A DNA stretch of 64,000 bases, taken from the NCBI GenBank assembly GCA_038212275.1, contig JBBQUR010000006.1:1-64000 (forward strand), read 5' to 3'. Below are positions 342-64,000 of this stretch, in pieces (within the stretch, counting starts at the first letter, position 1; each line of letters opens with the position of its first letter). The notes under the pieces are model-generated. The model ran no database searches and was not told the origin of the DNA. It saw only the letters and a program-made list of their open reading frames with translations. Source of the stretch: Planctomycetota bacterium. GTDB taxonomy: Bacteria; Planctomycetota; B15-G4. A program made the translations under genes and the position numbers.

Positions 342-1898
342 ATGTCGAGCACGTTGCGCGTCTGTCTCGCCGCCGTGGCCATGGCCTTCTCGGCCTTCGT
401 GGTCACGGCCGGCGCGAGCCTGGAGGACATCGGCGGGCACGCCGTGCTCTTCCTGCTGGTGCTCTTCCTCAACGGCTGGCTCATCGCGGTGGCGGAGCGC
501 GCGGTCATGCCGCGCGGCGGGCTGCGCCTCACGCGCTTTCCGCTGGGGCCGCGGCTGCTCACCACCAAGCCTTCGCTGGCGATGCAATTCATCGTGTTCA
601 TCGCGCTGCTCGGGATCGCCACGCAGAGCTGGGCCATCCTCGGCTGGGCGACCCTCATCGTCGCGACGGTCACGATTCACGCCTTGCGCCGCGCGGCGTG
701 GTATGTCGTGCCGGCCGCGCTGCTGGTGAACACGCTGGCCACGATGAAGGAATTCCACACGCTGGGCGACCTCGTGAAGGACGCCAGCGGCTGGATCGTC
801 GCGCTCGTGACCTTCGCGTTGCAGGCGCTCATGGTCTGCGGGCCGCTGCTGCGCACCGACGTGGCCGTGCCGCTGTCGTGGCGCGCGCGCTTCGTCGTGC
901 TGCTGGCCGGACTGCCCGCGTGGGGCGGCGCCTTCTGGGTCTTCAGCCGCACGCCGGTGGCCGGCATGAAGCTCGACCTCGAGGCGATCATGATCGTGCT
1001 GCTGCTCGGCGGCATCGCGCAGTCCGTGGTCGTGGGGCTGCTGGCCAAGCTCATCGCGCTGGACGAGCGCAGCAGTCCGACGAAGCCCGTGCCCTCCGCA
1101 CATGGTGTCGGCCTGGCGCTGCTGCCGATGCTGGTGCCGCTCTTTGCGTGCCTCGCGCTCTACTTCACTCCGGTGCCGGAGGCGGTGTTCGGCGGCGTGT
1201 CGCCCGATGCCTGGAAGGGCCTCATGGTCCTGCTCCTCATCGTGCCGGCCGTGCCCGCCGTGGTGCTCGTGGCCGCGGGACTCGACCGGCTCGATGGCCG
1301 CAATTCCGGCTTCGTCGGAAGCACCGCGGCCGTGGCGACGCTGGGAGTGTGGTTCGTGCTCGGGCCCTACCTGCTGGGTGCGCTCTACGCGCCGGAAGGT
1401 CCCGCGGCGCTGGCGCGCGCCACCTTCGACATGCGCGGCATCTCGCCGCTCGTGGCAGGTCGCGTGAGCGCCGGAGCGCTCTTCACCGGCCAGCACTTCG
1501 GCGGCAACGTCACGCTGGGCGGCATGCAGGTCGCGGACATGTCGCGGGCGGTGACGCTCATGCTGCTGGGCGCGGCGGCTCTCTCGGCGCGCTACATGCG
1601 CCACGCGCGTCCGGTCCAGAAGCCAGCGGGCTGGATGGGACACATCGCCCTCTTCGCGCTCATGGGCGCCGGGTGCTGGCACTTCATGCCGCGCATCGGT
1701 CCGGCCGGCGCGCCGCTCGCCGCGGCCTGCGCCTGCACGGTCCTGCTCGCGCTGGACATCCTGCACTCCGAGATCCGCATCAAGGTGCGCGGCGACGAGC
1801 CCGTGCCGGTGGACAACGTCGGCGCCCTGGCGCCGGAACCCTCGGCGCCGCTGCTGGCCGCCGACGACGAAGCGCGCGACATCCGTCTCATCACCTGA
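342..1898 (+). CDS. Polytopic integral membrane protein, unknown function
   Basis: Part of ORF 42..1898; coding-like codon usage begins at ATG 342 (MSSTLRVCLAAV); roughly a dozen or more hydrophobic segments. Confidence 0.75.
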   Translation: MSSTLRVCLAAVAMAFSAFVVTAGASLEDIGGHAVLFLLVLFLNGWLIAVAERAVMPRGGLRLTRFPLGPRLLTTKPSLAMQFIVFIALLGIATQSWAILGWATLIVATVTIHALRRAAWYVVPAALLVNTLATMKEFHTLGDLVKDASGWIVALVTFALQALMVCGPLLRTDVAVPLSWRARFVVLLAGLPAWGGAFWVFSRTPVAGMKLDLEAIMIVLLLGGIAQSVVVGLLAKLIALDERSSPTKPVPSAHGVGLALLPMLVPLFACLALYFTPVPEAVFGGVSPDAWKGLMVLLLIVPAVPAVVLVAAGLDRLDGRNSGFVGSTAAVATLGVWFVLGPYLLGALYAPEGPAALARATFDMRGISPLVAGRVSAGALFTGQHFGGNVTLGGMQVADMSRAVTLMLLGAAALSARYMRHARPVQKPAGWMGHIALFALMGAGCWHFMPRIGPAGAPLAAACACTVLLALDILHSEIRIKVRGDEPVPVDNVGALAPEPSAPLLAADDEARDIRLIT

Positions 1899-1914
1899 GC
1901 CGGCGGGCGCGCCC

Positions 1915-2694
1915 TCAGTCGCGGCGGTAGGTGCCCAGCAGGCAGGTCTCGGGATAGTGCAGGCCCACGGCGGCGAGCGCGCGCCAGGTCGTGAGCTCCA
2001 CGCGATTGAGCAGCTTGAAGCGCTGCAGCGTGCGGCAGTCGTCCAGGTAGTGGAAGGAGGTTTCACGCAGGCCGTGCGCGCCGAGCAGCTGCGCGAGGCG
2101 CCGGCGCGTGTTCATCCGGAAGTAGGTGGGGAAGGTGTCCTTCTCGTCCGTCTTCCAGAGCAGTTTCTTGAGCGGATGGTGCAGGCCGAAGGGGACGCAC
2201 TTGGCGATCAGCGACACCGGTGCCCAGAGATTGACGGTGTAGATGAGCACCGTGCCGCCCGGCTTGACCATCGTGCCGAGCGCGGCCGCGGCGGCCTCCG
2301 CCGTCGGGATGTGCTCGGCCACCATGCGCAGCGTGACGAGGTCGAAGGGCTGCTCGGGCCGGAAGTCCGTGAGCAGGGCGCGCACCTTGCGGTGCACGAA
2401 GGGATTTTCTTCCAGGGTCTCGTCCGGGTCCACGCCGACGAGCAGGCCCGCGCGGTCGGCCAGCTCGCGCGCGAGCCGCTTGTTGCTGGGGAAGAGCTCG
2501 TGCCCGCAGCCGATGTCGGCCCAGCTGCTGCCGGGTGTCACCAGCTGCGCGACGGTGGCCTCGTAAAGGTCGTCGGGCGTGCGGTAGCCGAGGCGCTGTC
2601 GCAGCAGCGGCCCCCAGCCGGTGGGCGGATCGCCGTACTTGAGGGCCAGCACATGCGCGATGCCCGCCTCGGGCAGGTCGGTCTGAGCGGACAT
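1915..2694 (-). CDS. Class I SAM-dependent methyltransferase
   Basis: WADIGCG motif I, FDLVTLRMVAEHI, VKPGG; RBS-like AAGGGAG upstream. Confidence 0.85.
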   Translation of the reverse strand: MSAQTDLPEAGIAHVLALKYGDPPTGWGPLLRQRLGYRTPDDLYEATVAQLVTPGSSWADIGCGHELFPSNKRLARELADRAGLLVGVDPDETLEENPFVHRKVRALLTDFRPEQPFDLVTLRMVAEHIPTAEAAAAALGTMVKPGGTVLIYTVNLWAPVSLIAKCVPFGLHHPLKKLLWKTDEKDTFPTYFRMNTRRRLAQLLGAHGLRETSFHYLDDCRTLQRFKLLNRVELTTWRALAAVGLHYPETCLLGTYRRD

Positions 2695-2801
2695 CTGTCT
2701 CCCTTGCGGCGTCGAGGCCGCGGCATCGGGGCCGCGGCGGCGGGGGCAGCGGGTGCAGCGGCGGCGGACCGTCGCCCGGCCGTGCTGCCGGGCCGGCGCG
2801 A

Positions 2802-2893
2802 ATGATACCGATGGGACGGCGCAGGCGAGAGCACAAGCCGCCGGAAGCGTGACGCCACGGCAGCGCTTTTCAGGCGGGTCGCCGCGCTATCAT
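2802..2893. promoter_or_regulatory. Divergent -10 hexamers (TATCAT) for the methyltransferase and the peroxiredoxin
   Basis: TATCAT on minus strand at 2802-2807 and on plus strand at 2888-2893 in a GC-rich intergenic region. Confidence 0.4.
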
Positions 2894-2943
2894 CGCGCGC
2901 CCATTCCGCACGCCTGCCGCACCTGCGGCACGAGGAGCTTCCC

Positions 2944-3603
2944 ATGACCGACACCGTCAACGTCCCGCACACCGCGCCGCTTCGCATCGGCGATCGCGCG
3001 CCCGACTTCAAGGCCGACACCACGCACGGCCCGCTGGAGTTCTCCAAGTTCGCGGACGGTCACTGGGTCGTGCTCTTCTCGCACCCGGCCGACTTCACGC
3101 CCGTCTGCACGACCGAGTTCGTGGGCTTCGCGAGCAAAGCCGACGAGTTCGACAAGCGCGGCGTCAAGCTCATCGGCAACAGCATCGACAGCGTCTTCTC
3201 GCACATCGCCTGGGTGCGCGACATCGAGCGCAGCCACAAGGTGTCCATCCGCTTCCCGGTCATCGCGGACCTCGACCAGCGCGTGGCGCGCCTCTACGGC
3301 ATGGTGCACGAGCCCACCTCGGTCACCGCGACGGTGCGCTGCGTCTTCGTCATCGACCCGAAGATGACCGTGCGCGCGATGATCTACTACCCGATGAGCG
3401 CGGGCCGCAACATCGACGAGGTGCTGCGCCTCATCGACGCGCTGCAGACCGGCGACGAAAAGGGAGTGGCCACGCCCGCCAACTGGAAGAAGGGCGACGA
3501 CTGCATCGTGCCCCCGCCGAAGACGCAGGCCGACGCCGAGAAACGCATGGCCGACAAGTCCATGAAGGTCACGGACTGGTACTTCAGCAAGAAGCCGGTC
3601 TGA
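2944..3603 (+). CDS. Peroxiredoxin, Prx6 (1-Cys-type) subfamily
   Basis: FSHPADFTPVCTTEF active site, YYPMSAGRNIDEVLR, ATPANWKKG; RBS GAGGAG. Confidence 0.95.
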   Translation: MTDTVNVPHTAPLRIGDRAPDFKADTTHGPLEFSKFADGHWVVLFSHPADFTPVCTTEFVGFASKADEFDKRGVKLIGNSIDSVFSHIAWVRDIERSHKVSIRFPVIADLDQRVARLYGMVHEPTSVTATVRCVFVIDPKMTVRAMIYYPMSAGRNIDEVLRLIDALQTGDEKGVATPANWKKGDDCIVPPPKTQADAEKRMADKSMKVTDWYFSKKPV

Positions 3604-53026: not shown

Positions 53027-53233
53027 GCGACCGCGGGGTCGGACGGGGGCCGTTCCGGCATGCCGCTGCCGGGGCTCCGGCCCGGTCGCTTGCTCTCAAG
53101 GCGCGGCGCCGGCGCTCTCGATAGGCCTTCCCGGATCCATGCCCTCCGGCACGGCACCGCGTGCGCACGTCGGCCGCGTCCTCCCGGCGGGCTCCGCAAC
53201 ACCCCGACGAGGCCTCGACAGCGGGGCGACTCC

Positions 53234-55318
53234 ATGAGCCAGCGCAGCGACGACCGCCTCTCCACACCGCGCGAACTCTTCGGCGGCAGTCCAGGCGACC
53301 CGCCTGCCGGCGGCTACATCCAGCTCGCGCGACAGCTCGATCAGCGCCGCCAATGGGCCGAGCTGAACTGGGCCGGGAGCCTCGACCAGTACCTCGACCT
53401 CGTCCGCGCCGATCCGCGCCTGGCGCGCAACGCCTACCAGCGGCTGCACGACATGATCGTGTCCTGGGGCGTCGACGCCGCGCCGTCCGGAAGCGAGGGG
53501 CCGGCGCACTATCGCTTCTTCAGGGACCCCGTCGCCGACGGGCGTGATGCGATCTTCGGGCTCGAGCAGCCGCTGGCCGACCTCGTCGCGCACCTGCGGG
53601 CTGCCGCGCACGGCCTCGGCGCCGAGCGGCGCGTGCTGCTGCTGCACGGGCCCGTGGGTTCGTCCAAGAGCACGATCGCGCGGCTGCTCAAGCGCGGCCT
53701 CGATCTCGTCTCGCGGCAGCCCGAGGGTGCCGTCTACAGCTACCGCTGGCACGTGGACGGCGAGGTCCACGACTGCCCGATGCACGAGGACCCGCTGCAC
53801 CTGCTGCCGGCCCCGGTGCGCGAGTCCGTGTTCAAGGACCTCAACGCGCGCTTCGGCGGCGACTACCGGCTGGCGCCCACCGGCAAGCTGTGCCCGGTGT
53901 GCCGCTTCTACTACGAGAAGCTGCTCAAGGACTCCGGCGGCGACTTCGGGGCGGTGGAGCGCGCGGTGGAATGCTTCCGCTTCGTGTTCAGCGAGCAGGA
54001 TCGCGTCGGCATCGGCACCTTCCAGCCGAAGGACGAGAAGAACCAGGACAGCACGGAGCTGACCGGCGACATCAACTACCGGCTCATCGCGCTCTACGGC
54101 AGCGACAGCGATCCGCGTGCGTTCAATTTCGACGGCGAATTCCACGTCGCCAACCGCGGGCTGATCGAATTCGTCGAGATCCTCAAGCTCGATGTGGCCT
54201 TCCTCTACGACCTGCTCGGCGCGAGCCAGGAACACACGGTGAAGCCCAAGAAGTTCGCGCAGACGGACATCGACGAGGTGATCCTCGGGCACACCAACAG
54301 CCCGGAGTTCCGCCGGCTGCAGAACAACGAGCTGATGGAGGCCTTCCGCGACCGCACGACGCGCATCGACATCCCGTACAACACGCGCCTCGCCGACGAG
54401 GTCCGCATCTACGCGAAGACCTTCGGGACAGGCGCTTGCGCGGGCCGACACCTCGCGCCGCATGCGCTGGAGGCCGCCGCGATGTGGGCCGTGCTCACGC
54501 GCCTCGCGGAGCCGAAGAACCACGCCGTCACGCTCGTGCAGAAAATGCACCTCTACGACGGCCGGGCCGTGTCGGGTTTCACGCCCGCGTCCGTGTCCGA
54601 GCTGCGTGGCGAGGCGCCGGCCGAGGGCATGACCGGCGTGTCTCCGCGCTACATCCAGGACCGCATCGCGGCCGCGCTCGTCGCGGAGCGGGCCCCGCCG
54701 TGCCTCACGGGCTTCGACGTGCTCGCATCGCTGGAGCGCGGCCTCGCCAACCACCCGCTCATCGACAGCGACGAGGTGCGTCGGCGCTACGCGGACCTGA
54801 TCGGCGTCGTGCGCGACGAGCTGGAGAACACGCTCAAGGACGAGGTGCGGGCGGCCGTCGCCGCGGACACCGAGGCCGTGCAGCGGCTGTGCTGCAACTA
54901 CGTCGATTCGGTCAGCCTCTCCGTGGATGGGGGAGCTTCCGCCGACGAGCGGCTCATGCGCTCCGTCGAGGAGAAGATCGGCGTCACCGAGGCGCGCAAA
55001 GGCGACTTCCGGCGCGAGATCGTGAACTACATCGATGCGCTCTCCGCGCGCGGCGAGAGCTTCACCTACCTGTCCAATCCGCGCCTGCGGCACGCGCTCG
55101 AGCTCAAGCTCTTCGAGGGCTGCCGCGACTCGTTCAAGCTCACCGCCGGCAGCAGCAGCGTCATCGACCGGGACGCCGCCGAGAAAGTGGACGTCATGGC
55201 GGCGCGGCTGGTGCGCGATCGCGGCTACTGCGAGCGCTGCGCGGCGCGCGCGCTGGACCACGTCGCCTCGGTGTTCGCCCGCGGCGAGCCGCGGCCGCCG
55301 GCCGACGACACGCCGTGA
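53234..55318 (+). CDS. prkA: PrkA/YeaG family AAA+ 'serine protein kinase'
   Basis: RNAYQRLHDMI, LLLHGPVGSSKST P-loop, CPMHEDPL, FQPKDEKNQDSTELTG, ANRGLIEFVE, GVSPRYIQD. Confidence 0.95.
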   Translation: MSQRSDDRLSTPRELFGGSPGDPPAGGYIQLARQLDQRRQWAELNWAGSLDQYLDLVRADPRLARNAYQRLHDMIVSWGVDAAPSGSEGPAHYRFFRDPVADGRDAIFGLEQPLADLVAHLRAAAHGLGAERRVLLLHGPVGSSKSTIARLLKRGLDLVSRQPEGAVYSYRWHVDGEVHDCPMHEDPLHLLPAPVRESVFKDLNARFGGDYRLAPTGKLCPVCRFYYEKLLKDSGGDFGAVERAVECFRFVFSEQDRVGIGTFQPKDEKNQDSTELTGDINYRLIALYGSDSDPRAFNFDGEFHVANRGLIEFVEILKLDVAFLYDLLGASQEHTVKPKKFAQTDIDEVILGHTNSPEFRRLQNNELMEAFRDRTTRIDIPYNTRLADEVRIYAKTFGTGACAGRHLAPHALEAAAMWAVLTRLAEPKNHAVTLVQKMHLYDGRAVSGFTPASVSELRGEAPAEGMTGVSPRYIQDRIAAALVAERAPPCLTGFDVLASLERGLANHPLIDSDEVRRRYADLIGVVRDELENTLKDEVRAAVAADTEAVQRLCCNYVDSVSLSVDGGASADERLMRSVEEKIGVTEARKGDFRREIVNYIDALSARGESFTYLSNPRLRHALELKLFEGCRDSFKLTAGSSSVIDRDAAEKVDVMAARLVRDRGYCERCAARALDHVASVFARGEPRPPADDTP

Positions 55319-56441: not shown

Positions 56442-57740
56442 ATGTCCGCTCCCGGGGCAGACCTGCGTGCGCTGCAATCCGAGGTGGAGGCGCGTGCGCG
56501 CGAGCTCGGTCTGCACGTGCCCGAGATCGTGTACGAGGTGGTGGATCATCGAGAGCTGAACGAGATCGCGGCCTACGGCGGTTTTCCCGTGCGCTACCAG
56601 CACTGGCGCTTCGGCATGGACTACGACCGGCTCATCAAGGGCCATGCCTACGGCCTGCAGCGCATCTACGAACTGGTCGTGAACACGGGCCCGGTGGTCG
56701 CATACCTGCTCAGGCAGAACGCGCCGGTCGAGCAGAAGCTCGTGATGGCGCACGTGTGCGGCCATGCGGATTTCTTCCGGCGCAACGCGTGGTTCGCCCA
56801 CACCGACCTGCACATGCTGGACACGATGGCGAGCCATGGCTCGCGCGTGGCTGCGCTGGCGGACCGCTTCGGCCGCGACGAGGTGGAGAGCTTCATCGAC
56901 CGCGTGCTGTCCGTGGACAATCTCGTGGATGCTTCGTCGCTCGGGCGCTCGCGCGGTCGGCCGGGCAATGCGCCCAGCCTCGATCACGGCGCGTCGCCCG
57001 GCGACATCCTGGGCCACCTGCTGCTCCGCGCGCCGCTCACGGACTGGCAGCAGGAAGTGCTGGCGATGCTGCGCGACGAGGCCTGCTACTTCCTGCCGCA
57101 GATGCTCACCAAGATCATGAACGAGGGCTGGGCAAGCTTCTGGCACAGCCGGCTCATGACCGGCACGCTGCTCCGCGACGCCGAGGTCGTGGACTATGCG
57201 CTGCAGCACGCGGGCGCCATGGGCGGCACGGACGGCCCCATGAATCCCTACAAGCTGGGCCTCGAGCTCTACCGCCACCTGGAACGGTGCGGCGGCCGCG
57301 ACGAGACTGCGGGACTCGCCGCCGCGTTCGAGGCGCGCGCCGTGCACAACGACCTGACCTTCGTGGACGAAGTGCTCGATGAGGACTTCGCGCGGGTGCA
57401 CCGACTCGGTGACACGACGGCGGAGTTCGCCGCTGCCAAGGAGGCGCTGCTCGCGTCGCTCACGAACGCCGGGCAGCCGGTGCTGCGGCGACTGCCCGGC
57501 GATGGCCCCGAGCTCGAGCTGCAGCATGTCTGGAGCGGCTCCGAGCTGCAGCTCGAGCAAGCCGAGGACACGCTGCGCAACCTCGGCGCGCTCTGGGGTG
57601 GCACGGTGCGCCTGCACACGCGCGTCGAAAACCGGGAGCTGCTGCTGACGTGCGCCGCCTCGGTCGTGACGCGCGAGCACGGAGAGGTGCTTGGCGAGGG
57701 CGGCCGGCGGGCCGCGGCATCCGCACCGCGGGTGAGCTGA
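56442..57740 (+). CDS. spoVR: SpoVR/YcgB family protein
   Basis: AYGGFPVRYQHWRFGM, IYELVVN, KLVMAHVCGHADFF, TKIMNEGWASFWH, NPYKLG. Confidence 0.93.
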   Translation: MSAPGADLRALQSEVEARARELGLHVPEIVYEVVDHRELNEIAAYGGFPVRYQHWRFGMDYDRLIKGHAYGLQRIYELVVNTGPVVAYLLRQNAPVEQKLVMAHVCGHADFFRRNAWFAHTDLHMLDTMASHGSRVAALADRFGRDEVESFIDRVLSVDNLVDASSLGRSRGRPGNAPSLDHGASPGDILGHLLLRAPLTDWQQEVLAMLRDEACYFLPQMLTKIMNEGWASFWHSRLMTGTLLRDAEVVDYALQHAGAMGGTDGPMNPYKLGLELYRHLERCGGRDETAGLAAAFEARAVHNDLTFVDEVLDEDFARVHRLGDTTAEFAAAKEALLASLTNAGQPVLRRLPGDGPELELQHVWSGSELQLEQAEDTLRNLGALWGGTVRLHTRVENRELLLTCAASVVTREHGEVLGEGGRRAAASAPRVS

Positions 57741-57822
57741 GGGCCGCGCGCACGGCGGCGGGCCGACTGGACGGCTGTCGGTGCGCGCCGCTATACCGCG
57801 GCGCCCGCAGGAGGCCAGCCGA

Positions 57823-58503
57823 GTGTCTGAACTTGCCGTGATCTTCGACATGGACGGCGTCCTGGCGGATACCGAGCCGACGCACCTGGCCAGCACCCGT
57901 ACGCTCCTGGAACGCCACGGGGTGTCGCTCGATGCCGCCTTCTACGCGCGCTGCATGGGCATGGCGGAGCAGCCCTTTTTCGAGCTGCTCGTGCGGCATT
58001 TCGGACTGTCCGCGGACCCGGCGCTGCTGGCGCGCGAGCGGCTGGCGCTGTCCCTGGTGGCGCTGGCGGAGGCGCCGCTGCTGCCCACGGAGGGTGCGCT
58101 GGAATGCCTGCTGGCGCTGCGACTGGACGGGTTCCGCCTCGCGCTGGCCTCGTCGGCAAGCCGGGAGCAGGTGGCGCTCGTCGTGGAGAGGCTGGGCCTC
58201 GGCTCGTTGCTCGATGCGCAGGTCTGCGCCCAGGATGTCGCGCGCGCGAAGCCCGCGCCGGACATCTTCCTCGAGGCGGCGCGTCGGCTTGGCGTCTCTC
58301 CGGAGGACTGTCTCGTGGTGGAGGATGCCGTGCTGGGAGTCGCGGCCGCGCGAGCGGCAGGCATGAACGCGGTGGCCCTGCTTTCGTCAGGCGCCGAGGG
58401 CGCGGCACACCTTGCTGCCGGCGCATCGGCCTGCCTGCGGACACTGCACGAGCTCACTCCGGAGCGTGCGGCGGGATGGGCGAGCGATCGGATGCACCCG
58501 TAA
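57823..58503 (+). CDS. HAD-family phosphatase (beta-PGM/CbbY-like)
   Basis: VIFDMDGVLADTE, LASSA, KPAPDIFL, VVEDAVLG. Confidence 0.92.
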   Translation: MSELAVIFDMDGVLADTEPTHLASTRTLLERHGVSLDAAFYARCMGMAEQPFFELLVRHFGLSADPALLARERLALSLVALAEAPLLPTEGALECLLALRLDGFRLALASSASREQVALVVERLGLGSLLDAQVCAQDVARAKPAPDIFLEAARRLGVSPEDCLVVEDAVLGVAAARAAGMNAVALLSSGAEGAAHLAAGASACLRTLHELTPERAAGWASDRMHP

Positions 58504-58533
58504 AAACTGACGGGCGCCCCCGAAGGGGCGCCC
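58501..58533 (-). terminator. Intrinsic terminator downstream of the microprotein gene
   Basis: 9-bp stem GGGCGCCCC/GGGGCGCCC with TTCG loop on the minus strand, followed by GTCAGTTTTT. Confidence 0.75.
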
Positions 58534-58565
58534 ATCGGCAAGGACAGAAGAAATCGCGCGAGCGA

Positions 58566-58649
58566 CTACTTCTTGCGGCGCGCGGTCTTCTTCGTCGCCT
58601 TCTTGCGGCCAGCCTTCTTGGTGGCCTTCTTCTTTGCCTTCTTGGCCAT
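58566..58649 (-). CDS. 27-aa Lys/Ala/Arg-rich microprotein MAKKAKKKATKKAGRKKATKKTARRKK (histone H1-tail/protamine-like)
   Basis: RBS AAAGGGAG 8 nt before ATG; uniform AAG/GCC/GCG codons; TAG stop followed by a terminator. Confidence 0.8.
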   Translation of the reverse strand: MAKKAKKKATKKAGRKKATKKTARRKK

Positions 58650-58980
58650 GACAGATTCTCCCTTTGAACAAAGGTAACGGAAGCTCGGTTGCTCCGTTTC
58701 CGTTGTTATCGGTGATCCTGCGCCGGAATGAAGCGCAGACTCGCGCGACGTGCGCGACGGAGCGTTGCCTCGTCGCGTGCACGCGCGTTGCGAACAGCGT
58801 TGCCATCGCATCGCGCATCACGCACGGTGCGCGTGCGACGCGTTCGTGGTGATCACCCGGAAACGTCGCAACGACGCGGGCTTCCGGGAGGGAGCCTCCG
58901 CGCGCGTCGTGTCAAGCGGCGCTCTTCAGGCAGGGCGGGCCAAGGCGGCCGGATACCGCCTTGCGACCCCGATTCCGGGG

Positions 58981-58998
58981 CCAAAAAATATTTTTTGG
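58981..58998. promoter_or_regulatory. Perfect 18-bp AT-rich palindrome CCAAAAAATATTTTTTGG
   Basis: Lies between the divergent microprotein and tRNA-Arg units; strongly contrasts with the surrounding GC content. Confidence 0.6.
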
Positions 58999-59183
58999 AA
59001 TGGGCCTAAAGTGCCCCCTCCGGCCGTGCTCCGGAGGCCCTCCGGGAGGGGACGCGCACGGTCCACGACGCCTGGAGCAGGTGTGCGCGCAGGACGTTCG
59101 CACCGTGTCGATGCCGCCGCGGTTGACTTCGAGGCGGCGGGACGGAATCCTCTGCACCCTCACTCGCGAGTGCTGGCGAGCAT

Positions 59184-59260
<77 letters not shown>

Positions 59261-59355
59261 CTCCTGGCGACGCGCGGCCTGCCGTGTGCGCCCGCGCCGG
59301 ACAGCCGACCGCGCCGGACAGCCGACCAAGCCGGCAGGGGATGCCTCAACGCCGC

Positions 59356-59871
59356 ATGAATCCCGCGATCGTTCCGCCGCCGGCTTCCATGGTTCGGTAC
59401 GCCTTTGAACTGGCGCTGGCGCAGGCGCTGCTCGCCGAAGCGCACGACGAAGTTCCCGTCGGCGCGGCGATTCTCGGGCCTGACGGGGCCGTGCTCGCGC
59501 TCGGGAGGAACGAGATCGAGGCACGGCGCGACCCGACGGCTCACGCGGAGCGACTCGCGTTGACGGCGGCCTGCGCGGTGGTCGGCGCGCCGCGCTTGCC
59601 CGAAGGCAGCCTGCTGGTGGCCACGCTCGAGCCCTGCGCCATGTGCGCCGGGGCCATCGTCCTGGCGCGGGTCCGATTCCTGGCGTTCGGCGCGACCGAC
59701 CCCAAGGCGGGGGCCTGCGGGTCATTGCGCGACGTCGTGCGCGACACGCGCCTCAACCATCGGGTCGAGCTGCTCCCCTCGCAGCGGGCCGAGGAGTGCG
59801 GCGACCTGCTGACGCGCTTCTTCCGCGTTCGCAGATCCGCGCCGGCACGGGACTGTCCGGGGCCGGGCTGA
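59356..59871 (+). CDS. tadA: tRNA adenosine(34) deaminase; start uncertain (59341/59356/59389)
   Basis: EVPVGA, DPTAHAE, TLEPCAMCAGAI, DPKAGACGS, LNHR. Confidence 0.93.
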   Translation: MNPAIVPPPASMVRYAFELALAQALLAEAHDEVPVGAAILGPDGAVLALGRNEIEARRDPTAHAERLALTAACAVVGAPRLPEGSLLVATLEPCAMCAGAIVLARVRFLAFGATDPKAGACGSLRDVVRDTRLNHRVELLPSQRAEECGDLLTRFFRVRRSAPARDCPGPG

Positions 59872-60174: not shown

Positions 60175-60241
60175 GACGCCAGCCTCGGGCGGTTTGCCCC
60201 GCATGGTGGCATCCGAGGGTCGGCGCCGCCGTGCGCGCAGT

Positions 60242-60328
60242 GGGGCCGGCAGCAAGTGGACCGCGTGAACTGGGTCAGGCCCTGACGGGAGCAGCCCTAA
60301 GCGATGGCGCCACGGTGTTGCCGGTCCC
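60242..60328 (+). ncRNA. ffs: Signal recognition particle RNA (core hairpin; ends approximate)
   Basis: Helix-8 motif GTCAGG-CCC-TGAC-GGG-AGCAGC; closing stem GGGGCCGGCAGCA/TGTTGCCGGTCCC; typical position upstream of dnaX. Confidence 0.88.
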
Positions 60329-60406
60329 TCTCCGCGCACGGTGCGCGACTCGAATCGCAGGCCGGATGCTCGACGGCCGGAGGCCGGCTCGCGTAGGCTC
60401 CTCTCC

Positions 60407-62215
60407 ATGGTCGGCTACACGGTTCTCGCCACGCGCTATCGGCCGCGCATCTTCGACGACGTGGTCGGGCAGGCAGACGCCGCGCACGTGCTGCGCGCCG
60501 CCATCGAGGGCGGCCGCTCTGCGCATGCCTACCTGTTCTCCGGACCGCGCGGCGTGGGCAAGACGTCCATGGCGCGCATCCTGGCCAAGGCCTGGAACTG
60601 CCTGGTCGCGGAGAGCGGCCTGCCGTGCGGCACGTGTGCGGTGTGCCGCGCCATCGACGAGTCGAGCGACTGCCTCGATGTGGTCGAAATCGACGGCGCC
60701 TCGCACAACCGCGTCGAGAACGTGCGCGACCTCATCGATGCCGTGCGCTTCCGGCCGGTGGAGGCCCGGTATCGCGTGTACATCGTGGACGAGGTGCACA
60801 TGCTCTCGACCTCGGCCTTCAACGCGCTGCTGAAGACGCTCGAGGAGCCGCCGGCGCACGCGAAGTTCATCCTCGCCACCACGGAACTCCTGAAGGTTCC
60901 CGAGACCATCCGCTCGCGCTGCCAGCTCATCGATTTCCGGCGCCTCGCGCTGGAGGACATGCGCGCGCGGCTCGCTGACATCTGCGTGCATGAAGGCGTG
61001 CCCGTGCCGGACGGCCTGCTCGACCGGGTCGCACGGCACGCGCGCGGCGGCCTGCGCGATGCGCTTTCGCTGCTCGACCAGCTCATCACCTACGGCGACG
61101 GCAAGCCGACGATCGCGGACTTCGAGCGGCTGACCGGCCGGCTCGCACCCGAGGCGCTGCACGAACTGCTCGGTGGCGCGCTCGCCGGCGACGGTGCCGC
61201 CGTCCTGAACGCCTGCCAGGACGCCTTTGCGCGGGGGGCGCGCGGCGCTGACCTCGTCGAGCAGCTCACCGAGATCCTTGAGGGCTTGCTGGTGACGGTG
61301 GCCGGCAGCGTGCCCGCGGATCGCACGGCCGAGGAGCGGCAGTCGCTCCAGCGTCTGGCCACGCAGTGCAACCTCGATCAGGTGGTGGCGATGCTGGACG
61401 TGCTGGTCGAGGCGAATCGCCGCTTGCGACAGCGCCACGACAGTCGGCTCGTGACCGAACTCGCCCTGCTCAACCTTGCGCGCGTGAAGCTGCTGACGCC
61501 GCTCGGCGATCTGCTCGCAAGCGGAGGTCTGCCCGCCGCGGCCGCTTCGGCGGGGTCCCGGCTCGCGCCTGCGGCTGCTGCCGCGCCGTCGTCGCCGCGA
61601 GGCGTTTCCCGCGCGCCGGCAACGCGTGCCGAGCCAGCCGTCACGTCGCCGGACTCGGTGGTGCCGGCGCACGCTCCCGCGTCCACGCCCCGTGCGCCAG
61701 GCCCGCGCGACCACGCAGAGCCAGGGCAGGGCACGGACTTCGCCGAGCGTTTCATCGAGGCCGTGTCGCGAGTCTCGCGTTCGCTGCGCCTGGAACTGCA
61801 GCGCTATCCCGCTATCCGCGTCGAGGGCGACGAATTGCTCATGGAGCGCCCTTCCGGCGGGGCGCCACTGCTCTTCGACCCGACGCAAGCCGATGTCGCC
61901 AGGCGCTTCACCGAGGCTGGCAACGCGTTGACGGGCCGGTCGCTCCGCCTGCGTGTCCTGCAGGCCGGCCCCGAGGCGAAGCGATCCGACGTCCCGGCCA
62001 AGGCCCCGCAGCCGATGAGCAGCAGTCTCGCGTCGGCAGGGTCGGCTGCGTCGGCTGCTTCGGCTGCGTCGGCTCCGACCGACGCCGATGCGCGCCGCGC
62101 CGCGCCGGAGGTCCGGCGTCCGCCCGCGGGGAACCGCCCCGACGCGGCACGGCCATCCGACGTCGAACAGCGCATCCTGAAGGACTGGCCGGGTTCGGAG
62201 CGGGTCGACTTTTAG
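60407..62215 (+). CDS. dnaX: DNA polymerase III subunit gamma/tau
   Basis: YTVLATRYRP, HAYLFSGPRGVGKTS, PCGTCAVC, EIDGASH, IVDEVHMLS, TIRSRCQ, GGLRDALSLLDQ. Confidence 0.97.
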   Translation: MVGYTVLATRYRPRIFDDVVGQADAAHVLRAAIEGGRSAHAYLFSGPRGVGKTSMARILAKAWNCLVAESGLPCGTCAVCRAIDESSDCLDVVEIDGASHNRVENVRDLIDAVRFRPVEARYRVYIVDEVHMLSTSAFNALLKTLEEPPAHAKFILATTELLKVPETIRSRCQLIDFRRLALEDMRARLADICVHEGVPVPDGLLDRVARHARGGLRDALSLLDQLITYGDGKPTIADFERLTGRLAPEALHELLGGALAGDGAAVLNACQDAFARGARGADLVEQLTEILEGLLVTVAGSVPADRTAEERQSLQRLATQCNLDQVVAMLDVLVEANRRLRQRHDSRLVTELALLNLARVKLLTPLGDLLASGGLPAAAASAGSRLAPAAAAAPSSPRGVSRAPATRAEPAVTSPDSVVPAHAPASTPRAPGPRDHAEPGQGTDFAERFIEAVSRVSRSLRLELQRYPAIRVEGDELLMERPSGGAPLLFDPTQADVARRFTEAGNALTGRSLRLRVLQAGPEAKRSDVPAKAPQPMSSSLASAGSAASAASAASAPTDADARRAAPEVRRPPAGNRPDAARPSDVEQRILKDWPGSERVDF

Positions 62216-62625: not shown

Positions 62626-63231
62626 ATGGCCCTGCCACCAACGCTGACACGCCTGATCGCCGCCTTCCGCACGCTTCCCGGAGTCGGGACGCGCACTGCG
62701 GAACGGCTCGCCTTTCATGTGCTGCGGGCCCCGGAGGCAGAGACCGACGAACTCGCCGCCGCGATCGTCGCGCTGCGGAGCAGCGTGGTCGCGTGTTCGA
62801 CGTGCCACACGGTGGCCGAAGCCGATCCATGCCCCATCTGCGCCGACGAGCGCCGCGACCGCGGGCGGCTGCTGGTCGTGGAGCAGCCACGCGACGTGCA
62901 GGCCTTCGAGGATGCAGGCTGGAAAGGCGTCTACCACGTCCTTCTGGGCCATCTCAACGCGCTCGAGGGCATCGATGCGGGCGACCTCACCATCGAGGGG
63001 CTGCTGCGGCGCGTGAAGGCGGGCGGTCTCGACGAGGTGATCATCGCCACGAACCCCGACTACGAAGGCGACACGACGGCACTGCACCTCAGGAAGCGAC
63101 TTGCGGGCACGGGGGTGACCGTGTCACGCATCGCGCGCGGCATCGCCTCGGGGAGCGCGATCGAGTACAGCAATGCCGCCATGCTGGCGGACGCGCTGAC
63201 AGGCCGCGCGCCGATGGAGGCCTCGGCGTGA
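62626..63231 (+). CDS. recR: Recombination mediator RecR
   Basis: LPGVGTRTAERLAF, CSTC..CPIC zinc finger, VVEQPRD, EVIIATNPDYEGDTTA Toprim. Confidence 0.97.
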   Translation: MALPPTLTRLIAAFRTLPGVGTRTAERLAFHVLRAPEAETDELAAAIVALRSSVVACSTCHTVAEADPCPICADERRDRGRLLVVEQPRDVQAFEDAGWKGVYHVLLGHLNALEGIDAGDLTIEGLLRRVKAGGLDEVIIATNPDYEGDTTALHLRKRLAGTGVTVSRIARGIASGSAIEYSNAAMLADALTGRAPMEASA

Positions 63232-64000
63232 AGCTGGGCATGTCGCAGTCGATCCGCACGTCGCTGCAGCTGCGGCTCTCGCCGCAGATGCTGCAGCGGA
63301 TCGAGGTCCTGCAGCTCTCGTCGCTGGATCTCCGGCAGCTCATCGAGCAGGAACTGCAGGAGAACGAGACGCTCGAGCAGCAGACGGATGATCCGACCGA
63401 GATGGCGGAGGCCGATGCGGTTGCCGAAACGGGCGACGGCGACGGCGACGGCGATGGCGATGTCGATGCGTACGACGGAGAGGACGAGTGGGAGGACCGC
63501 ACGCCCGGCGAGGGTCCCTCGCGCATGGACGTGATGGTGGCGACGACGGCGGCTCCCGAGACGCTCGCCGACAACCTGGGACGGCAGCTCGACATGCTCG
63601 ATCTCCCGGAGCGCCAGCTCACGATCGCCCGCGCCATCATGCTCGCGCTCAACGAGCGGGGCTGGTTGTCGCTTCCTCTGTCCGACGTCGGGGCGCCGGT
63701 GTCGCCGCCGGCGACGGCCGCCGAGCTCGAGCAGGCCTTGCACGTGGTCCAGCGCCTCGAGCCCGCGGGCATCGGGGCACGAGACCTCACGGAGTGCCTG
63801 CTGCTGCAGCTCTCGGCCGACAATCTCGAGTACGAGCTGCTCGTCTCGCTGGTCATTCATCACCTCGATGACATCGCGCACAACCGCATCCCGCGCATCG
63901 CACGCGAGTCCGGCGCCAGCGTGGATCGCGTGCTCGCCGCCATCGAGGTCATCAGCCACCTCGATCCGATCCCGGGCCGTCGCTTCTCGGGCGCGCGGGC
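63228..64000 (+). CDS. rpoN: RNA polymerase sigma-54 factor, 5' part (runs off the window; absent from the ORF track)
   Basis: Manual translation from GTG overlapping recR stop: LSPQMLQRIEVLQLSSLDLRQLIEQELQEN, acidic region II, VQRLEPAGIGARDLTECLLLQL. Confidence 0.93.
   Translation, partial: MKLGMSQSIRTSLQLRLSPQMLQRIEVLQLSSLDLRQLIEQELQENETLEQQTDDPTEMAEADAVAETGDGDGDGDGDVDAYDGEDEWEDRTPGEGPSRMDVMVATTAAPETLADNLGRQLDMLDLPERQLTIARAIMLALNERGWLSLPLSDVGAPVSPPATAAELEQALHVVQRLEPAGIGARDLTECLLLQLSADNLEYELLVSLVIHHLDDIAHNRIPRIARESGASVDRVLAAIEVISHLDPIPGRRFSGAR

Follow-up and report, generated by a model that had tools for sequence, protein, structure and literature searches.

The window analysed here, a stretch of 64,000 nucleotides (nt) from contig JBBQUR010000006.1 of the Planctomycetota assembly GCA_038212275.1, carries on its minus strand (58649-58566) an open reading frame (ORF) for a strongly basic microprotein of 27 amino acids (aa). 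We found that this ORF is a genuine conserved gene and not a chance ORF. Judged from sequence and synteny, the 27-mer is the small form, and positional ortholog, of H1/Hc2-like repeat proteins of related genomes. The reading that we favour, at somewhat better than even probability, is that of a translated monocistronic polycation gene with a sigma-28-family promoter, whose product would bind a polyanion, most likely DNA.

The microprotein gene and its conservation

An earlier note on this DNA had reported the 27-aa ORF, 16 residues of which are basic, and the sequence confirmed it. The product, MAKKAKKKATKKAGRKKATKKTARRKK, contains 13 Lys, 3 Arg and no acidic residues, giving a net charge of about +16. 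All Lys codons are AAG (13/13) and all Arg codons are CGC (3/3), the major codons across five neighbouring genes (92% and 51%, respectively); the note's statement that the ORF uses preferred codons holds for these, while two of its Ala codons (GCA and GCT) are minor ones. The unusually strong Shine-Dalgarno sequence (SD) that the note had described was also found, with a GGAG core 8 nt from the ATG, and GGAG was absent from the 30 nt upstream of the four neighbouring gene starts sampled, which are longest-ORF guesses. The terminator that the note had assigned to the gene lies 29 nt after the stop codon, where a 12-pair hairpin with a UUCG loop is followed by AGUUUUUA; terminator-like sites in the scanned region numbered 4, compared to 1.1 expected. 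The G+C content of the ORF is 58% versus 70% for the window's own genome, a 4.65-Mb assembly (G000). When this whole genome was scanned in six frames for stop-free segments with a 20-aa window holding at least 6 Lys and at least 10 Lys plus Arg, just 12 segments qualified, and the microprotein ORF was the top one in lysines (11/20). The window copy contains a few degenerate KKAxx units as imperfect repeats, and no long (KKATR)n paralog was found in the G000 assembly. Rfam gave no match at the ORF or its leader. An in-frame extended ORF of 81 aa was discarded, as the extension is not conserved and the copy in genome G006 has a stop 12 codons upstream of the ATG.

We examined the locus in the window's GTDB family (f1) and in the other four families of the same order (f2 to f5). 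Loci of f1 were collected by a DNA search of 40 relatives and locus inspection, and four more were reached through the tRNA-Arg(ACG)/tadA pair, which anchored orthologous loci in families f1 to f4. A K-rich ORF between a convergent gene for a HAD-family hydrolase and the divergent tRNA-Arg(ACG)-tadA pair was present in 14 of the 15 f1 relatives, and HAD was the syntenic neighbour in all 10 relatives of this family checked for it. The short f1 forms, the group to which the window belongs, measure 23, 23, 24 and 27 aa. The long forms, mostly perfect KKATR pentamers, measure 56, 79, 105, 117, 117, 119, 124, 135, 143, 148 and about 150 aa, the last being interrupted by masked bases. The four short-form genomes lie on one side of a branch of the HAD tree (support 82/91), and identity between their HAD proteins is no higher than about 58-64%. 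All four short copies nevertheless retain the ATG-GCN start, SD, frame, RR(K)K end and terminator. They differ from one another by synonymous changes (GCC/GCG/GCT/GCA, ACC/ACG and CGC/CGT/CGG), by exchanges of Lys and Arg between codons that are not adjacent (AAG to CGG or CGC) and by indels, all of them in-frame. Changes of these kinds are what selection acting on a basic peptide, and not on an RNA, leaves behind. All 13 f1 loci that were aligned retain the terminator hairpin, and 5 of its 14 pairs show compensatory changes.

The sequence of the ORF was also recovered independently. A 236-nt contig from another study spans 58460-58695 with one mismatch, no gaps and the same ORF, and a Logan contig from what is probably the source sample is identical. 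A repeat collapsed during assembly was rejected, since two independent assemblies give the same length and the repeats of the window are imperfect. Relatives conserve the ORF together with its SD, start codon and terminator, and likewise the synteny with HAD and tRNA-Arg/tadA, as expected of the real gene that the earlier note had proposed; the lack of ORF and ribosome-binding-site conservation, which it had named as an outcome that would speak against its proposal, is therefore not what we observed.

Outside f1, a syntenic K-rich ORF was found in 10 of the 16 genomes examined from f2 to f5, divergently oriented in four of five f4 genomes (21, 25, 25 and 29 aa), in five of six f2 genomes (20, 21, 34, 38 and 95 aa) and in the single f3 genome (38 aa). 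Every orthologous locus printed showed ATG-GCN, a GGAG-type SD and a G+C hairpin past the stop, the conservation of the hairpin being formally tested in f1 only. The orthologs range from 20 to about 150 aa, about 7-fold, with 20-38 aa as the majority state across four families, and in some lineages 15-nt repeats have given rise to (KKATR)n proteins of 56-150 aa at the same syntenic locus. In a TadA tree, f4 formed the deepest split and the sole long form outside f1 (95 aa, f2) was nested among short ones; the midpoint root on the f4 branch is a drawing root only, and resolution inside f1 is poor. Because short forms occur in f2, f3 and f4 and the long f2 form is nested among them, these data suggest that a form of about 20-40 aa is ancestral and that the long (KKATR)n proteins are expansions by 15-nt repeats. 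The idea of the 27-mer as a contracted long form was dropped given the short forms of these three families. Thus, what the earlier note had presented as a stand-alone oddity is one member of an order-wide gene.

When 185,579 species genomes were scanned for an exact pattern, 97 stretches matched, 21 of which had an ORF with at least 40% Lys plus Arg after the match. Eleven of these ORFs were the planctomycete-type gene, and nine of the 11 contigs were titled Planctomycetota or Phycisphaerales metagenome-assembled genomes (MAGs), in line with the planctomycete host that the note had supposed. When the 42 genomes of the order were searched at the protein level in six frames, the window's own copy was the sole match, and of 5351 word candidates obtained with a 45-aa relative as query not one scored; both results are uninformative on distribution, as the composition correction of HMMER probably removes such sequences. 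A pattern scan of metagenome contigs gave four stretches, all of them chance matches without a K-rich ORF.

The SD overlaps an imperfect palindrome, CCTTTGTTCAAAGG, and related palindromes occur at many orthologous loci (for example CCTTTTGCAAAAGG and CCTTGTACAAGG), the near-palindrome recurring in L007, L011, L013, L014, L017-L019, L022, L025, L166 and L167. In them the AAGG(G)AG of the SD can pair with a pyrimidine stretch, CCTTT or CCCTT, located a few bases before it, and the loop sequences vary between families. A hairpin sequestering the SD, or an RNA thermometer, was rejected because the predicted stems were weak and had no advantage over shuffled sequences (z from -1.5 to +0.95). The palindrome may act as an operator or as a mild brake on translation.

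The promoter block and sigma-28-family factors

Upstream of the microprotein gene, all 15 f1 loci (G000 plus 14 relatives) carry the block cTTCATyC-N13-C(A/G)CCGATa with invariant spacing. The pattern [TA][TA]CA[TC]-N15-CCGAT matched in the same 15, and its CCGAT core is invariant. The block ends 58-70 nt before the ATG, and in the window the T of CCGAT lies 58 nt before it. When counted on the window sequence, the -10 element matches 7 of the 8 positions of GCCGATAA, the sigma-28 -10 consensus given in the accessible text of PMC8325347 and PMC12784957. No sigma-70-type promoter was found within 57500-59800.

The appearance of sigma-28 promoters in this lineage was taken from the upstream regions of 20 flagellin genes of flagellated sister families. 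CTCAAG(CG)-N16-CGAA(TCA), a canonical architecture, was common to 18 of the 20, and the spacing from AG to CGA (16 nt to CGA) is equal in the flagellin promoters and in the f1 microprotein block. The core CTCAAG-N15-17-CCGA was located 75-86 nt upstream of the microprotein ATG at 7 of the 10 loci outside f1, with a background of 58 occurrences in 9.3 Mb of G000, or 0.00125 per 200 nt. Using the full position weight matrix (PWM) of the flagellin promoters, we obtained p values of about 0.003 at three of four f4 loci (0.057 at the fourth) and, in f2, of 0.012 (L167), 0.029 (L014) and 0.055 (L165). By motif, the microprotein gene of the relatives outside f1, which belong to flagellated families, clearly appears to share the flagellin promoter core. 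Of this arrangement, the f1 loci retain only the spacing and the -10 CCGAT, their -35 being CTTCAT. In the scan for the flagellin core we also came across four near-identical copies of a 36-nt stretch beginning CGCTCAAGCGATG, on G000 contigs C6 (around 201083), C13, C31 and C32; the stretch is probably the terminus of a repeat or mobile element.

Sigma factors that could read such promoters are present throughout the order. G000 has two FliA/WhiG genes in TIGR02479 (242.9 and 199.3 bits; cut-off 189.6), and none of the 42 genomes of the order has fewer than two sigma genes of the FliA/WhiG family that score above or close to this cut-off. The two G000 paralogs are located at C1:165161-165826 and C7:76762-77424. 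The flagellated families f2 to f4 have a third copy, often about 2-3 kb or less from a flagellin gene. Flagellin above cut-off was found in none of the 16 f1 genomes, G000 included, and in one of five f5 genomes; G000 has no flagellin, FlhA or rod matches. It is reasonable but unproven that the gene was once part of a sigma-28 programme and that f1 now uses a retained non-flagellar paralog.

The accessible part of PMC12282069 describes a sigma-28 regulon of Chlamydia, determined by chromatin immunoprecipitation sequencing, that consists of hctB, encoding Hc2, and tsp. The likeness to the orthologs studied here lies in their flagellin-class promoter core of sigma-28 type, by motif, and the parallel with the sigma-28-dependent hctB is notable, if unproven.

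Relation to Hc2 and competing explanations

Family membership was judged with cut-offs of 40 bits for PF07382 (HC2), 80 bits for NF038053 (hist_H1_lk_Burk) and 135 bits for NF038052 (histone_lik_HC2). Among seven relatives searched with PF07382, the long syntenic ortholog of L013 reached 47.5 bits, two proteins stayed below the cut-off (17.3 and 14.7 bits) and four gave no match. The best ortholog scores for NF038053 and NF038052, 40.1 and 22.2 bits, were far below cut-off. In the ESM Atlas, look-alikes of 31-40 aa formed unnamed clusters, and in the nearest cluster having any Pfam family HC2 was assigned to 17% of the members. The H1-tail-like character that the earlier note had seen in the 27-mer fits these results, as the long syntenic orthologs touch Pfam HC2.

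As described in the available portion of PMC2848022, chlamydial Hc2 (HctB) binds DNA, and its length of 165-237 aa changes with the number of lysine-rich pentamers. The orthologs of the 27-mer are likewise built from lysine-rich pentamers with Ala, Thr and Arg in varying repeat number, neither they nor Hc2 have acidic residues or a folded domain, and both hosts belong to the Planctomycetes-Verrucomicrobia-Chlamydiae (PVC) group. In contrast to Hc2, the product here has 27 aa (20-38 aa in most relatives), and the planctomycete host is free-living, without a known elementary-body stage.

Other polycations resemble the 27-mer in composition or size. Protamines and the C-terminal tail of histone H1 share with it a similar size, an extreme positive charge and charge neutralisation. 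Fish protamines are about 30 aa long and Arg-rich, whereas the 27-mer is Lys-rich, so that this is an analogy only, with no evolutionary link. ScvA of Coxiella burnetii, rich in Arg and Gln, also has about 30 aa. Together with Hq1 it is reported, in the accessible text of PMC4766238, as a small basic DNA-binding protein of the small-cell variant, and it provides a precedent for a very small basic DNA-binding protein in a resting form with a condensed nucleoid; it comes from another phylum and is likened here by description only, no relationship being implied. The C-terminal domains of AlgP and PhaF and the NF038053 proteins share the low-complexity, polycationic K/A-rich repeats and the instability of repeat number. 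According to the part of PMC9239181 available, K/A repeats of the AlgP/PhaF type bind DNA in vitro and associate with polyphosphate (polyP) or polyhydroxyalkanoate granules. These repeats differ from the 27-mer in being tails on proteins of about 150-350 aa with a folded domain.

The monocistronic unit comprises the promoter block, a leader of about 50-60 nt, the strong SD, 27 codons and the terminator, conserved by position and frame. In the reading that we favour, transcription would start from a promoter of the sigma-28 (FliA/WhiG) family, read in the flagellin-less f1 by one of the two retained sigma-28-family paralogs, and the gene would not be constitutive but would be expressed as part of a developmental or dispersal-stage programme. 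The peptide is predicted to be disordered, without a fold of its own, and to act through its charge, each copy neutralising about 16 phosphates. The polyanion bound and neutralised would most likely be chromosomal DNA, as it is for Hc2, H1 tails and protamines, and the outcome may be nucleoid compaction or silencing at a particular life stage. In flagellated planctomycetes the mother cell is sessile and the daughter a swarmer (PMC10923784, accessible text). We regard the nucleic-acid-condensing planctomycete peptide of the earlier note as a fair hypothesis.

A broader proposal, which we consider rather unlikely, takes the 20-38-aa form as ancestral to the Hc2-like proteins of the order and also as part of an old, PVC-wide module in which sigma-28 controls chromosome compaction. 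The microprotein would then have been co-expressed with flagellin in swarmer or dispersal cells and, after the loss of flagella, kept together with two non-flagellar sigma-28 paralogs; the wiring from sigma-28 to a histone-like protein would be the same as that of nucleoid condensation in chlamydial elementary bodies.

Explanations other than a DNA-binding protein were weighed against these data. The peptide might organise polyP or another non-DNA polyanion, as in granules or RNA condensates, by complex coacervation, as has been suggested for the KPAA-repeat tail of Pseudomonas AlgP, instead of being a chromatin protein. Its composition is of the same kind as that of the AlgP C-terminal domain; AlgP associates with and spaces polyP granules, and polyP with polycationic peptides yields condensates (accessible part of PMC9239181). 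Sequence alone does not tell DNA from polyP as target, but ppk, ppx and granule genes are not linked at the locus, the 27-mer lacks the folded N-terminal domain of AlgP, and the profile that the long orthologs match most closely is that of the DNA-binding Hc2; we consider this explanation improbable. We judge quite improbable a binding to RNA or ribosomes, either as a mini ribosomal protein bound to rRNA or as a hibernation-like translation silencer of a resting or dispersal stage. Ribosomes are known to contain very small polybasic proteins, and the strong SD, own promoter and own terminator would fit an abundant small protein. Against it, Pfam and NCBIfam gave no ribosomal family match, the locus shows no ribosomal gene linkage, and a separate small basic ORF already exists elsewhere in G000; moreover, a protein with a fixed site on the ribosome would hardly be expected to vary about 7-fold in length among orthologs, as this one does (20 to about 150 aa).

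It is very improbable that the ORF is no functional protein gene at all, be it a decaying (KKATR)n remnant, a collapsed repeat, an RNA-acting transcript or a Lys-codon leader. Standard gene callers skip the ORF and only long forms reach family thresholds, which would suit such an interpretation. That 20-38 aa is the majority state over four families, with the long f2 form nested among short ones, speaks against a decaying remnant, and the imperfect repeats and the equal length in two assemblies speak against a collapse. The promoter block, SD, ATG, frame and terminator are kept across genera, and Rfam finds nothing at the ORF. A Lys-codon attenuator or leader peptide was rejected since no gene lies downstream on the minus strand, the HAD gene being convergent.

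Several results weigh against the preferred reading of a sigma-28-controlled, DNA-binding member of an Hc2-like group. As for the distribution, one f1 relative (G011, a genome 58% complete) has no syntenic ORF and a transporter gene occupies the spot, and the syntenic ORF was found in none of the four f5 genomes examined. The 27-mer itself has no Pfam match (E <= 0.01) and no NCBIfam match, and similarity of this low-complexity kind does not prove common descent with Hc2, being inseparable from convergent composition. The literature criterion for sigma-28 promoters (accessible text of PMC8325347) allows at most two mismatches to a -35 of TAAA and a -10 of GCCGATAA; by eye, the window has three, one in the -10 ACCGATAA and two in TTCA. 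The full flagellin PWM was not significant at L166 and L168 (f2) or L170 (f3); in f1 it gave p < 0.05 at only three of 14 loci and was not significant at the other 11, and for the window's own promoter p was 0.83, with the best hit off the block. A PWM of the f1 block found no second convincing site in G000, so that no regulon is visible there; the next-best sites scored at most 24.0, compared to 25-32 for true sites, and one of them lay inside an HpcH/HpaI aldolase ORF and another, with a weak score, about 150 nt upstream of a gene for a di-haem cytochrome c peroxidase. Finally, by charge arithmetic, neutralising 90% of the 4.65-Mb chromosome would need about 5 x 10^5 copies, so the peptide may modulate compaction with other factors rather than alone.

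Genomic setting and significance

The microprotein gene lies beside prkA-yeaH-spoVR, HAD and tRNA-Arg-tadA, as the earlier note had described (Table 1). The link that it had drawn to the prkA-yeaH-spoVR stress operon is unsupported: the gene is convergent to that operon and has its own conserved promoter block and terminator, and the block of the sister families matches the flagellin promoter core, not anything stress-related. Beyond tadA, the plus strand carries two tRNA-Ser genes, the signal recognition particle (SRP) RNA gene, dnaX and rpoN. With HAD being convergent, there is no same-strand gene downstream of the ORF, and no ppk, ppx, granule or ribosomal genes were found linked at the locus.

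Table 1. Coordinates of the microprotein gene, its signals and neighbours in the window, and of K-rich ORFs on other contigs (locus identifier given with the position)
Feature	Position	Strand	Remarks
27-aa polycationic microprotein ORF	58566..58649	-	Stop TAG included; product MAKKAKKKATKKAGRKKATKKTARRKK
Shine-Dalgarno AAAGGGAG	58658..58665	-	GGAG core 8 nt from ATG
Imperfect palindrome CCTTTGTTCAAAGG	58661..58674	-	Overlaps SD
-10-like block CACCGATAA	58706..58714	-	Sigma-28-type core CCGATA
-35-like block CTTCAT	58728..58733	-	Conserved promoter-like pair with the -10-like block
Intrinsic terminator	58499..58536	-	12-bp G+C stem (58536-58509), UUCG loop, U-run
prkA	53060-55318	+	Followed by DUF444/yeaH and SpoVR
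HAD-family hydrolase gene	57781..58503	+	Convergent neighbour; Pfam PF00702, PF13419
tRNA-Arg(ACG)	59184-59260	+	Divergent neighbour; synteny anchor
tadA	59284-59871	+	Divergent neighbour; synteny anchor
SRP RNA	60239-60334	+	Immediately upstream of dnaX
dnaX	60341-62215	+	
rpoN	62793-63998	+	Sigma-54; runs past window end
Second K-rich gene of f2	L005 1438-1575		
Second K-rich gene of f2	L008/L009 1492-1569		
Second K-rich gene of f2	L010 1489-1566	-	
Second K-rich gene of f2	L016 1465-1593		
Second K-rich gene of f2	L020 1478-1597	-	
K/A-rich ORF, Hyphomicrobiales	L116 ~1600	+	
K/A-rich ORF, Hyphomicrobiales	L147 ~400	-	
K/A-rich ORF, Hyphomicrobiales	L081 ~1595	+	

Further K-rich sequences were seen during the searches. 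In some f2 genomes, a second K-rich microprotein gene (25-45 aa) lies outside the syntenic locus and has an SD and a terminator of its own. One example, MAVAKKAKKAPKKAAKKAAKKAKKK, is identical in three genomes of one genus, and the sequence upstream of this second gene, CTCGACA...GTCAT(T)CT, is unlike the promoter-like region of the syntenic gene. Contig L056 (JBLIMM010000195.1), titled as a MAG of Pseudohongiellaceae (Gammaproteobacteria), carries a planctomycete-type locus whose promoter block and printed parts of a 143-aa ORF match L013; it may be a mislabelled or mis-binned contig. Contigs of Hyphomicrobiales (Alphaproteobacteria) contain stand-alone K/A-rich ORFs of 19-23 aa, each with a strong SD, and in L116 and L147 the ORF is preceded by an GGCCGATAAGG -10-like site and followed by a clear hairpin and U-run terminator. 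The ascertainment of these ORFs is biased, since the search pattern imposed the promoter and the MAKK start; by their sequence they suggest similar microproteins outside Planctomycetota. K-rich repeats were also found as parts of longer frames. In L006 (1-1584, genome G009) they form a C-terminal KKA-type tail on a long ORF that, by eye, resembles topoisomerase I, and in L012 (genome G012, minus strand, stop-free frame 1217-3079) a (KKATR)5 stretch stands at the N-terminus of a frame of about 530 aa. The plus strand of G000 contig C30 holds, from about 16896, a small basic ORF ending ...MAKNNRKMKKANHGKRPASQKQRRKRLNKIRT, which presumably resembles the actinobacterial small ribosomal protein bL37.

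Condensed nucleoids are a known trait of planctomycetes (PMC3177640, accessible text). In the literature searched, most subscription journals lying outside its reach, we found no paper naming an H1-like protein in planctomycetes and none on such a microprotein in Planctomycetota. With fewer than 30 codons and low complexity, even a gene conserved throughout an order can escape notice entirely. The locus described here offers a concrete and synthesisable candidate for an H1-like protein in planctomycetes, and its orthologs constitute a natural length series (20 to about 150 aa) with which the effect of polycation length on DNA or polyP compaction could be tested. The length history suggests that 'histone H1-like' repeat proteins can arise through the expansion of a microprotein gene. 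The Hc2/H1-like polycations of this order may have been reduced to, or more likely may have started from, microprotein size, with a promoter history of the sigma-28 type. If the sigma-28 link is true, it would tie the cell-cycle and dispersal biology of planctomycetes to the best-studied developmental switch of Chlamydia.

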